Below, piece after piece: positions 2,570-4,982 of a stretch of DNA of 64,000 nucleotides. The position numbers and the translations under genes were made by a program. The DNA is taken from sequence record AP025670.1. One strand, written 5' to 3'. Positions within the stretch are counted from its first letter, which is position 1. The number at the start of each line of letters is the position of its first letter. Under the pieces are notes generated by a model. The model searched no databases. It was not told the origin of the DNA and saw only the letters and a program-made list of their open reading frames with translations. The DNA is from a plasmid.

Positions 2570-2815
2570 ATGGCTCAGGTCACAGTAAAAAAATGGGGCA
2601 ATAGCCCGTCTGTACGGCTTCCTGTTGCAATCATGCAAAAAGCGGCACTTAGCGTTGATGATACGGTTGAAATAGCGGTAGAAGAAGGTCGTATCATCAT
2701 TACGCCAGTTAAAGCAGTAGAATACTCATTAGAAAATTTGTTAGCCGGTATCACGCCGGAGAATATTCATGAGAAAGTAGACTTCGGAGCTCGAACAGGT
2801 AAGGAATTAATTTAA
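2570..2815 (+). CDS. MazE/PemI/ChpBI-family antitoxin (AbrB/SpoVT fold)
   Basis: 81 aa with the motif VKKWGNSPSVRLPVAIM typical of MazE-family antitoxins. Its stop overlaps the toxin start (taATGg). Confidence 0.8.
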   Translation: MAQVTVKKWGNSPSVRLPVAIMQKAALSVDDTVEIAVEEGRIIITPVKAVEYSLENLLAGITPENIHEKVDFGARTGKELI

Positions 2816-3147
2816 TGGTATCTCGATACGTTCCTGATTCTGGCGATTTGATTTGGATTGACTTTGATCCAGTTGAAGGACATGAGCAGGGCGGTCATCG
2901 TCCAGCAGTTGTCCTCAGCCCATTTGCATACAATAATAAAGTAGGGCTCTTATTATGCGTACCATGTACAACTAAGGGCAAAGGCTATCCATTTGAATGC
3001 GAACTCTCGAACGAAAGAGACAGCTACGCATTAGCGGATCAAGTTACATGTGTTGACTGGAGAGCTCGTAAGGTTACTAAAAAGGGCAAAGTGGAGGCAT
3101 CAGAACTGGCAGAGATAAAAGCTAAAGCAAAGGCGTTAATAGGTTAG
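2815..3147 (+). CDS. MazF/PemK/ChpBK-family endoribonuclease toxin
   Basis: 110 aa with motifs PDSGDLIWIDFDP and GHEQGGHRPAVVLSP characteristic of MazF/PemK. Confidence 0.85.
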   Translation: MVSRYVPDSGDLIWIDFDPVEGHEQGGHRPAVVLSPFAYNNKVGLLLCVPCTTKGKGYPFECELSNERDSYALADQVTCVDWRARKVTKKGKVEASELAEIKAKAKALIG

Positions 3148-3177: not shown

Positions 3178-3558
3178 ATGGAAAATGAAACACTACACAC
3201 AGCAACAGGTAATCAAACTCCTTTAGATAATGCTATATCATCATTAAGCTCTATTTTAGATGTTATTTTCACAGTAAATGATTATGTTTTGTTTTTTATA
3301 ATTTTAATAATGATTTTCGCTAAATCGAAATCAAGACTATTCAAATTGGCATTTGGTTATTCTGGTATATCAGTTGTATTTTTACTCTCTAGCTATTTTA
3401 TCAGGGATGATTTACTGTTTGATATTAATAATACACCGCGATTCGGATTATTAATGATCAATATAGGCATGATTACAACAGCATTATATTTAATATACTG
3501 GCTTATCTATCTATTCAACGAAAGTGGTATGATTGATAGCAAAAAGAGTGAACCATAG
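3178..3558 (+). CDS. hypothetical integral membrane protein
   Basis: 126 aa with several hydrophobic helices. No known motif. Confidence 0.4.
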   Translation: MENETLHTATGNQTPLDNAISSLSSILDVIFTVNDYVLFFIILIMIFAKSKSRLFKLAFGYSGISVVFLLSSYFIRDDLLFDINNTPRFGLLMINIGMITTALYLIYWLIYLFNESGMIDSKKSEP

Positions 3559-3615
3559 CTAACCGAAAAAGGGTGCTTGTATCACCAATCCTTCGTAATC
3601 TATAAAAGAGAAAAT

Positions 3616-3633
3616 GTGGGGGTTTCCCCCCAC
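3616..3633 (-). terminator. GC hairpin gtgggggtttccccccac followed by a T-run on the minus strand (probable 3' end of the hok-like transcript)
   Basis: A perfect 7-bp GC stem. The reverse complement is followed by ATTTTCTCTTTTAT. Confidence 0.45.
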
Positions 3634-3643
3634 AAGAGCAACA

Positions 3644-3787
3644 TTACTTATCACAAGATAGCGTAGCTTGAACCACTGTGCCTCCGCTTGTGAAATTTAG
3701 TGAACATAAGCGATCACGCATTAACAATGAGAAGCACAGAACTGTGATGCACACAGCAATCAGCCCAATCAGGGCAAATTTGCTCAT
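3644..3787 (-). CDS. hok: Hok/Gef-family type I toxin (47 aa), absent from the ORF track
   Basis: Manual translation of the minus strand gives MSKFALIGLIAVCITVLCFSLLMRDRLCSLNFTSGGTVVQATLSCDK. It aligns with the Hok/HokB core (LIICITILTFTLLTR..LYELRF). The segment VCITVLCFSLLMRDRLCSL matches the transmembrane helix plus the R-x-x-L-C-E/S motif. Confidence 0.65.
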   Translation of the reverse strand: MSKFALIGLIAVCITVLCFSLLMRDRLCSLNFTSGGTVVQATLSCDK

Positions 3788-4151
3788 TTCTCTTGACTCC
3801 TTGAGTAAAAGGAGACAGAATCAAATTGCGAAGTTTGTAGACTGCCTCGAATTAAGGGTTATACCTGATTCGGGGCTTTCGTCTTTTTGGCTCGTATCAA
3901 TGCTCGAACCAAAATGATTCAAGCACCCAAAACGATATTAGCAGATTATTATTAATTGCAATACTATTTATTATTAATAATATTTGTTTGTTTTTATGAT
4001 ATTTCTTTAAGTATTTTAATATAAATGGCTCATACTAACTTGAATTGAATAATATCAATTATATATTTAAATATTCTATGAAATCACCATATATTAGTGG
4101 TGGGTATAATTTTATTTACACCCACATGTTATTAATACCTTTCAATAAACC

Positions 4152-4982
4152 TTAATAGCTACCTTTGTAGCAAGTAGAGATGAATTGTAATTCTCCGTTA
4201 TTAGATATTTTTGAGTGTAGCACATCAATGCTATATTTAATCATAAAATCTGAAATCTCTTTTGTACAAAAGCTATTCTTCCATTTAGATATTCTTGATA
4301 TGTTTTGTTCAAAAGCAAACGCATCAACATCTGCATTTTTAAGAGAGAGTAACTTTTTATCTGTGGTATCAAAATTTAGCATATAAGTATTAACCGGACT
4401 AGACATCGTTTGTGTAACACCAATATATTTAACATCCCACGCATTAGTTTTATTGAATGAATTGGTTATGTACTCATCTAGCCAGATGTTTATCTTATCC
4501 ATTTCATCCTTAGATGTTTCCTTCTTGTCAATAAAATCATTTCTACTAAATATATATGTTTTTAAGGTTTCTCCGTTAACAACATCTCTTATAGTTAGCA
4601 CATTGTTTGCCGTAGAGAAAAATATCTGTGGTTCAGACAGATCAGCACCATACCAACGAGCATTGGGTAAGTTTTCGTCAAAGAAACTTAGTCTGTTTGT
4701 TGACTCTTTTCTACACAGATATGAAAAGAGTTTACCATCTTGGCTTCTTATGTATCTAATTCTACTGATATTATTTGAAATTTCCGTCGATTGCATTATA
4801 TCTATATCACGATCATATATGGTAGATAATCCTGCTTTACAAATTTCTGATAGTGAAAATGACATTTGACTTTCAGCGGAAATCGCATTTTGGATATGTG
4901 TGATACTCAATGATAAGACTGCAAATAAAATTAATTTATTGGCTTTCACATTTTTTCCTTTATTTTTACTATAAATTAGCAC
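4152..4982 (-). CDS. hypothetical secreted protein
   Basis: 276 aa with an N-terminal signal-like segment (KANKLILFAVLSLSITHIQNAISA). No family assignment. AT-rich. Confidence 0.4.
   Translation of the reverse strand: MLIYSKNKGKNVKANKLILFAVLSLSITHIQNAISAESQMSFSLSEICKAGLSTIYDRDIDIMQSTEISNNISRIRYIRSQDGKLFSYLCRKESTNRLSFFDENLPNARWYGADLSEPQIFFSTANNVLTIRDVVNGETLKTYIFSRNDFIDKKETSKDEMDKINIWLDEYITNSFNKTNAWDVKYIGVTQTMSSPVNTYMLNFDTTDKKLLSLKNADVDAFAFEQNISRISKWKNSFCTKEISDFMIKYSIDVLHSKISNNGELQFISTCYKGSY

Follow-up and report, generated by a model that had tools for sequence, protein, structure and literature searches.

Does the short open reading frame (ORF) on the minus strand of this plasmid encode the toxin of a hok/sok-type system, and is it accompanied by the RNA elements that would control such a toxin? 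The first-pass annotation of the window (the whole 64,000-nucleotide stretch of plasmid DNA analyzed here, from record AP025670.1) had proposed an unannotated hok/sok-like type I toxin-antitoxin locus on the minus strand at 3616–3900. Matches to Pfam Hok/Gef and Rfam sok, both above the curated thresholds, were found there and bear out this proposal. Both the Hok-family HMM match and the sok leader elements, on which the proposal had been made to depend, are present. The locus is unannotated in the ORF track on which the first-pass annotation was based, but RefSeq contains the CDS as "Hok/Gef family protein". Thus, the locus is already known at the database level, with the toxin gene bearing the family name in public records. 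With a probability of about 0.9, we read the locus as an intact type I toxin-antitoxin module of the hok/sok type, which would act by post-segregational killing and belongs to the maintenance region of a conjugative Proteus/Providencia plasmid resembling pPrY2001. Every RNA element of the R1 hok/sok model can be recognized here (Table 1), and the span of the locus is better widened to approximately 3566–3963.

Table 1. Observed and predicted features of the hok/sok locus, in window positions.
Feature	Position	Strand	Basis
hok toxin gene, 47 aa and stop codon	3644..3787	-	ORF list, Pfam PF01848, RefSeq WP_071547955.1
Antisense ORF, 79 aa, GTG start	3678..3917	+	ORF list
Predicted hok promoter, extended -10 TGcTAATAT	3935..3943	-	Read from sequence; TGnTA in homologs
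Predicted full-length hok mRNA, ~360 nt, closed form	3566..3928	-	Fold and homolog similarity; predicted ends
tac box GGGUGCUUG, mRNA 5' end	3920..3928	-	Pairs with 3579-3571 in MFE fold and RNAalifold
ucb / anti-SD box GCCCCG	3871..3876	-	Identical in all 9 aligned sequences
GAGG where R1 has its mok Shine-Dalgarno (SD)	3845..3848	-	GAGGC kept in all homologs
mok-like overlapping frame, 45 codons	3714..3851	-	Open from just before GAGG to well inside hok
Hairpin CUCCUUUUACUCAAGGAG sequestering the hok SD (GGAG 3800-3797)	3797..3814	-	RNAalifold and single-sequence folds
GC-rich stem-loop past the hok stop, then U-run 3614-3605	3615..3634	-	Terminator-like site
fbi box CAAGCACCC, then UUUUU (3570-3566)	3571..3579	-	Perfect 9-nt complement of 3928-3920
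Predicted Sok promoter, -35 TTGACT, 17-nt spacer, -10 CAGAAT	3793..3821	+	Promoter scan
Predicted Sok RNA, ~61 nt, predicted ends	3828..3888	+	Folds; hairpin and U-rich tail in homologs

The ORF at 3787..3644 (minus strand) is a member of the Hok/Gef family. A 47-aa ORF with Hok-family features had been described in the first-pass annotation, and the ORF list gave the same translation, MSKFALIGLIAVCITVLCFSLLMRDRLCSLNFTSGGTVVQATLSCDK. The protein scored 35.7 bits against Pfam HOK_GEF (PF01848; gathering score 22, E = 6.4e-09), with residues 5–45 aligned to profile positions 2–42 of 42. As read from the sequence, it consists of a hydrophobic helix, FALIGLIAVCITVLCFSLLM, followed by RDRLCSL and a polar tail. 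The R/K-x-x-L-C motif was kept in all intact homologs, and R1 Hok has RKSLCEI. The best NCBIfam matches were HokA (NF007290) and the Hok family (NF007279), with scores of 35.0 and 28.6, which were below the curated cutoffs of 89 and 73, respectively. Since these scores are far under the cutoffs, the protein is not an equivalog of any named Escherichia coli Hok. Taken together with its 33% identity to R1 Hok over 36 aa, they place it in a divergent Hok branch. No second Hok-like ORF was found in the 64-kb window by tblastn.

The opposite strand offers a different reading of the same region, in which the plus-strand 79-aa ORF is the real gene and the Hok-like one an antisense reading that arose by chance. 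The 79-aa ORF does occur in the sequence and exceeds the Hok-like ORF in length; however, it had no match in Pfam or NCBIfam and is absent from the RefSeq annotation. Its frame was open only in the closest relatives (81–86 aa in three sequences) and was broken in more distant homologs; in five more distant Morganellaceae homologs, the longest antisense open stretch in any frame was ≤54 aa. The Hok ORF, on the other hand, was conserved and scored above the Pfam cutoff. We consider it extremely improbable that the 79-aa ORF is a real gene. It is probably a spurious by-product of the Hok coding strand, in agreement with the first-pass annotation, which had doubted it.

An Rfam scan had been suggested as a check along with the original proposal. 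In the whole 64-kb window, the scan yielded RF01794 "sok" at 3928..3777 (minus strand) with 74.8 bits (cutoff 59, E = 9.1e-15) over the full model length (positions 1–157 of 157), and no second Rfam match. The leader thus belongs to the Rfam sok/hok-leader family. RF01794 also matched eight homolog loci, including the R1-type IncFII locus, and always on the hok-sense strand. Because the match always lies on the Hok-coding strand, it marks the hok mRNA leader, with the Sok gene itself encoded on the other strand. The family is named "sok antitoxin", and in the window and in loci L002–L010 its match runs on the hok-sense strand from +1 to just past the hok start. Leader and Sok elements had been expected at 3787–3900. 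They are indeed present upstream of the ORF, but the leader reaches 3928 and the promoter lies at about 3943–3935, outside that span.

The ends of the hok transcript were predicted from the conservation of the locus, for which the window, seven Morganellaceae homologs, and one R1-type locus were aligned (nine sequences in total). Similarity among the Morganellaceae sequences begins at a TGnTA(A/T)NNT box (3943–3935), 7 nt upstream of GGGTGCTTGA (3928), and all eight Morganellaceae homologs carry a TGnTA motif where the hok -10 lies. Transcription is predicted to start at the G at 3928, 7 nt downstream of the -10 box, and position 1 of the Rfam model aligns to this G. The sole -35 candidate, TTGCAA at 3961–3956 with a 15-nt spacer, is poor. 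Because the consensus promoter scan of 3450–4100 did not report a hok promoter, we infer this promoter from the -10 motif and its occurrence in the homologs. At the other end, similarity among the homologs stops right after CAAGCACCCTTT (3579–3568).

A 367-nt transcript of this region folded with an MFE of -132.1 kcal/mol (z = -6.4 compared with 100 dinucleotide shuffles), and nt 1–9 were paired with the 3' end. Together with the Pfam E-value, this puts the locus well outside what chance would produce. The fbi/tac elements, for which RNA folding had been proposed, were thereby recovered as a 9-bp helix, which was also present in the RNAalifold consensus of the nine sequences. Pair 4/402 of this helix shows a compensatory double change: all eight Morganellaceae sequences have U-A where the R1 type has C-G. 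The eight intact homolog loci, as well as the identical locus L001, contain the fbi sequence AAGC[A/G]CC; only L009, which lacks hok, does not. In the RNAalifold consensus, double changes were observed in 14 of the 61 pairs. They included C-G/U-A changes in the 5' hairpin in four sequences, a U-A/A-U double change in the hairpin holding the hok SD (columns 147–170) in four sequences, and C-G/U-A double changes at columns 341/359 in the stem-loop past the stop codon in three sequences. The long-range and local helices of the hok mRNA are conserved, with compensatory changes.

The ucb box is able to pair either with the GAGG region, as in the closed form, or with tac, as in the open form. GCCCCG (3876–3871) and CGAGGC (3849–3844) close a hairpin that folded in every homolog, despite an inner sequence that varies in nearly every lineage. 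In the fold of a nascent 60-nt RNA, GGG-UGCU of tac was paired with AAAGCCCC of ucb, in agreement with the Rfam consensus structure, and the tac/ucb helix was predicted in both the 60-nt and the 141-nt nascent folds. The MFE fold of the truncated mRNA (3928..3608) did not contain the tac/ucb form and had the 5' end paired with the coding sequence; long single-sequence folds of this kind are unreliable.

The first-pass annotation had noted a GC-rich hairpin with a T-tail past the hok stop codon. This stem-loop is present at 3634–3615, where TGTGGGGGGAAACCCCCACA and TTTTCTCTTT form eight pairs, six of them G-C. Three terminator-like sites were found in 3450–4100, compared with 0.2 expected from shuffles. 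However, since the tac/fbi pairing and the homology among eight plasmid homologs extend to 3571, the hairpin is probably not the end of the primary mRNA; the transcript most likely runs about 45 nt further, to 3571. By analogy with R1, the hairpin may be the protective 3' stem-loop of the processed, translatable mRNA. In R1, the full-length mRNA is closed by tac/fbi pairing, with the GAGG SD of mok sequestered by ucb. Slow 3' processing then converts it to an open truncated form with a tac/ucb stem, and the last stem-loop of this truncated mRNA protects it against 3'-5' exoRNases (PMC9841398).

On the plus strand, the predicted Sok promoter has the form TTGACT-17-CA(G/C)AAT in eight of eight Morganellaceae homologs. 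The predicted Sok RNA consists of a 16-nt 5' tail, GCGAAGUUUGUAGACU, a hairpin GCCUCG...CGGGGC (3844–3876; GCCUCGAAUU...GAUUCGGGGC), and the tail UUUCGUCUUUUU. Folding energies of -18.1 and -21.1 kcal/mol were calculated for the hairpin alone and for the 61-nt RNA, respectively. The hairpin and the U-rich tail were present in every homolog, with a divergent inner stem. The predicted 5' end of Sok is complementary to CUUCGC in the loop of a predicted target hairpin (3848–3812) in the hok leader. The UUCG of this loop presumably corresponds to the YUNR U-turn motif described for R1.

In R1, the mok start lies 58 nt upstream of the hok start, that is, at an offset of 1 modulo 3. The start codons of the mok-like frame in the window are likewise 1 nt out of register with the hok ATG. 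In each of the eight Morganellaceae homologs, this frame stays open from the GAGG region to beyond the start of hok, while the other frame is closed in most of them. Of the mok-like leader elements anticipated in the first-pass annotation, the open frame and the GAGG were found, but no canonical start codon could be assigned. In the window subgroup, the codons of the frame are GAG GCA GUC UAC AAA CUU CGC AAU UUG, and no AUG, GUG, or UUG occurs in this frame within 5–13 nt of GAGG. Its first canonical start is the UUG at 3824, 20 nt downstream of GAGG, and the ORF list contains the frame only from this codon. In the more distant pPM1162 subgroup, the only codon available is AUU, 5 nt after GAGG. 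A leader ORF in the other frame, ending in an AUGA overlap with the hok start, was also considered and was rejected, as it is closed or has no start in most homologs.

These features bear on the possibility that the locus, though related to hok/sok, does without mok-type translational coupling. In that case, Sok would act via pairing and RNase III decay or via a structural switch, or the leader would start at a non-canonical codon such as UUG 3824 or CUG 3818. This reading is favored by the missing start codons near GAGG in the window subgroup, by the lone AUU in the distant subgroup, and by the good SD sequence of hok itself (GGAG at 3800–3797 on the minus strand, 9 nt before the ATG). However, it is the mok-equivalent frame, and mostly not the other one, that all eight Morganellaceae homologs have kept open past the hok start, and neither GAGG nor its ucb partner varies. 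In addition, the hok SD is locked in a conserved hairpin, for the opening of which an upstream ribosome would be needed. In R1, the mok AUG is located 7–8 nt after GAGG, and mok must be translated as far as the hok SD (PMC9841398). On balance, we regard this reading as unlikely. It is similarly doubtful, though conceivable, that the Morganellaceae plasmid branch is a natural "mok-less" hok/sok variant in which the canonical mok start has been lost. In that event, control of Hok would fall to a leader frame with a non-canonical start or a very long spacer, or to Sok purely via RNA structure and decay. Any departure of the locus from the textbook mechanism would be confined to the mok start.

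Read as a coupled hok/sok module, the locus would operate as follows, according to the R1 model (PMC9841398). The weak promoter with its extended -10 would give rise to a stable mRNA of about 360 nt (3928 to ~3566), whose 5' tac and 3' fbi are paired with each other. As long as the mRNA is closed in this way, the GCCCCG of ucb would be paired with the GAGG region and the hok SD would be held in its own hairpin, and neither ribosomes nor Sok would be able to act. Slow 3' trimming would remove fbi and halt at the GC stem-loop at 3634–3615, and tac would then pair with ucb, exposing the GAGG/target hairpin. In plasmid-carrying cells, the short, unstable Sok (~3828–3888, plus strand), transcribed from its strong conserved promoter, would pair via its 5' tail, block leader translation, and trigger RNase III decay. 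Upon plasmid loss, Sok would decay first, ribosomes would read the mok-like frame through the hok SD hairpin, and the 47-aa membrane toxin would be made, leading to cell death. For this locus and its subfamily, the transcript ends, the processing step, and the toxicity are predictions.

The distribution of the locus was analyzed by blastn against a plasmid collection. The 401-bp locus was found in 148 plasmid records, including 68 from Providencia and 57 from Proteus, and 89 of the records were conjugative plasmids. Twenty-two records showed ≥99% identity, and diverged copies showed 91–97%, 77%, and 68% identity. At least 14 of the listed plasmids, from several Proteus and Providencia species, carry the locus at 100% identity. 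The window (positions 1–25000 compared) was 100% identical to the Providencia rettgeri plasmid NZ_LC507075.1, a pPrY2001-like conjugative plasmid. The RefSeq name "Hok/Gef family protein" (WP_071547955.1) is given to the CDS in this plasmid and in at least 14 other Proteus/Providencia plasmids with the identical locus.

These data also bear on whether the locus might be inactive in spite of its intact appearance, a remnant comparable to most chromosomal hok loci of E. coli K-12 and of no consequence for plasmid stability. Some relatives have clearly decayed: Hok is frameshifted (21 aa) in the Providencia alcalifaciens plasmid OU659126, and the leader in pPROV084-1 stands before an unrelated ORF. 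In the window, however, every element is intact, and the identical sequence recurs among the plasmids listed above. Moreover, homologs at 68–77% DNA identity have kept both the protein and the RNA helices, the latter with compensatory changes, and the Hok protein identity to the pPM1162 group (76.6%) is higher than the DNA identity (~68%). We therefore consider a remnant very unlikely and retain the reading as an intact module.

Two of the homolog loci differed in organization from the others. In L005 (P. alcalifaciens plasmid NZ_OU659126.1, 705–1468), a 1-nt deletion in the hok homolog leads to a stop after 21 aa, and the mok-like frame continues into the C-terminal part of Hok for 75 codons; no CDS is annotated there, and this hok homolog is probably a pseudogene. 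In L009 (Providencia sp. PROV084 plasmid pPROV084-1, NZ_CP096333.1, 416–830), the hok leader and the Sok region are kept, with an Rfam sok score of 81.6 bits, and hok is replaced by an unrelated, non-hydrophobic 87-aa ORF (WP_131680344.1), which had no match in Pfam or PADLOC. The fbi box is absent and the Sok -35 TTGACT is lost. Either L009 has decayed, or its leader module has been taken over by another gene.

The hok/sok locus adjoins mazE/mazF, a ParA-like ATPase gene, and parG within the maintenance region of the plasmid. The putative role of the locus in post-segregational killing is in keeping with this context. The mazE/mazF type II pair is located at 2570–3147 (plus strand; Pfam MazE_antitoxin, 41.7 bits; PemK_toxin, 84.8 bits), about 420 bp past the hok/sok locus on its 3' side. 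With mazEF beside hok/sok, the plasmid carries two addiction modules side by side, near the genes for the ParA-like ATPase and ParG. Two conserved hypothetical genes flank hok/sok, one encoding a hydrophobic protein of 126 aa (3178–3558, plus strand) and the other a protein of 276 aa (4152–4982, minus strand). Neither had a match in Pfam, NCBIfam, or PADLOC. The 126-aa gene and hok converge, with the stop codon of the 126-aa gene only 13 nt from the fbi box.

The pPrY2001-like plasmids considered here are of the MOBH/MPF_F type. Such plasmids carry NDM-1 carbapenem resistance in Proteus and Providencia (PMC6737455), and their description apparently contains no discussion of the hok/sok locus. 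The present analysis adds one more maintenance function, a type I killer module, to those listed for these plasmids, and this module may help to explain their persistence. Beyond correct annotation, the importance of the finding is small, and the mok start is a small wrinkle in a very well-studied regulatory model.

Among known systems, the gene order and the RNA logic of the window locus are the same as those of hok/sok (parB) of R1 and of R1-type IncF loci. Both types share GG(G)YGCUUGA at +1, the tac/fbi pairing, the GCCCCG ucb, the GAGG leader SD, an overlapping leader frame with the same offset to hok, and a stem-loop past the stop codon. They also share an antisense RNA of about 60 nt, composed of a GCCUCG-hairpin-CGGGGC and a U-rich tail; the Sok region of the R1 type, GCCUCGUGG...CUACGGGGC UAUCUUCUUU, is of the same design. 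The R1-type locus compared here, L010 (E. coli IncFII plasmid NZ_CP128973.1, 32150–33005), encodes a Hok that is 100% identical to R1 Hok, and RefSeq annotates only a 33-aa CDS (408–509) there. In L010, no start codon was found in the mok-equivalent frame upstream of hok, and the only ATG after GAGG appears to be in frame with hok.

The two types differ in several respects. The toxin has 47 aa in the window and 52 aa in R1, and the mRNA is about 360 nt long, compared with about 400 nt in the aligned R1-type sequence (369 and 404 nt, respectively); the hok mRNA of R1 itself has 398 nt. The 5' hairpin is 19 nt shorter in the window than in the R1 type. The Sok -35 is TTGACT between the hok SD and the AUG in the window, whereas it is TTGCGC just upstream of the SD in the R1 type. 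Unlike in R1, the mok-like frame of the window has no AUG start. The host range also differs, the window type occurring on Morganellaceae plasmids and the R1 type on IncF plasmids.

With regard to the hokA–E genes of the E. coli chromosome and the NCBIfam Hok models, HokA and the Hok family come nearest to the window protein, at the sub-cutoff scores given above. Related Hok/Gef family proteins are encoded on small Proteus mirabilis plasmids (pPM1162 group, 38–53 kb), the Hok of which (WP_012368889.1) shares the 76.6% identity with the window protein mentioned above. The leader, the Sok promoter, the fbi box, and the stem-loop of this group are the same as those of the window, and its Rfam scores, 94.8–106.3 bits, are higher. 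The group is distinguished from the window by a 6-nt insertion in the target region and by the AUU past GAGG, which is a possible leader start.
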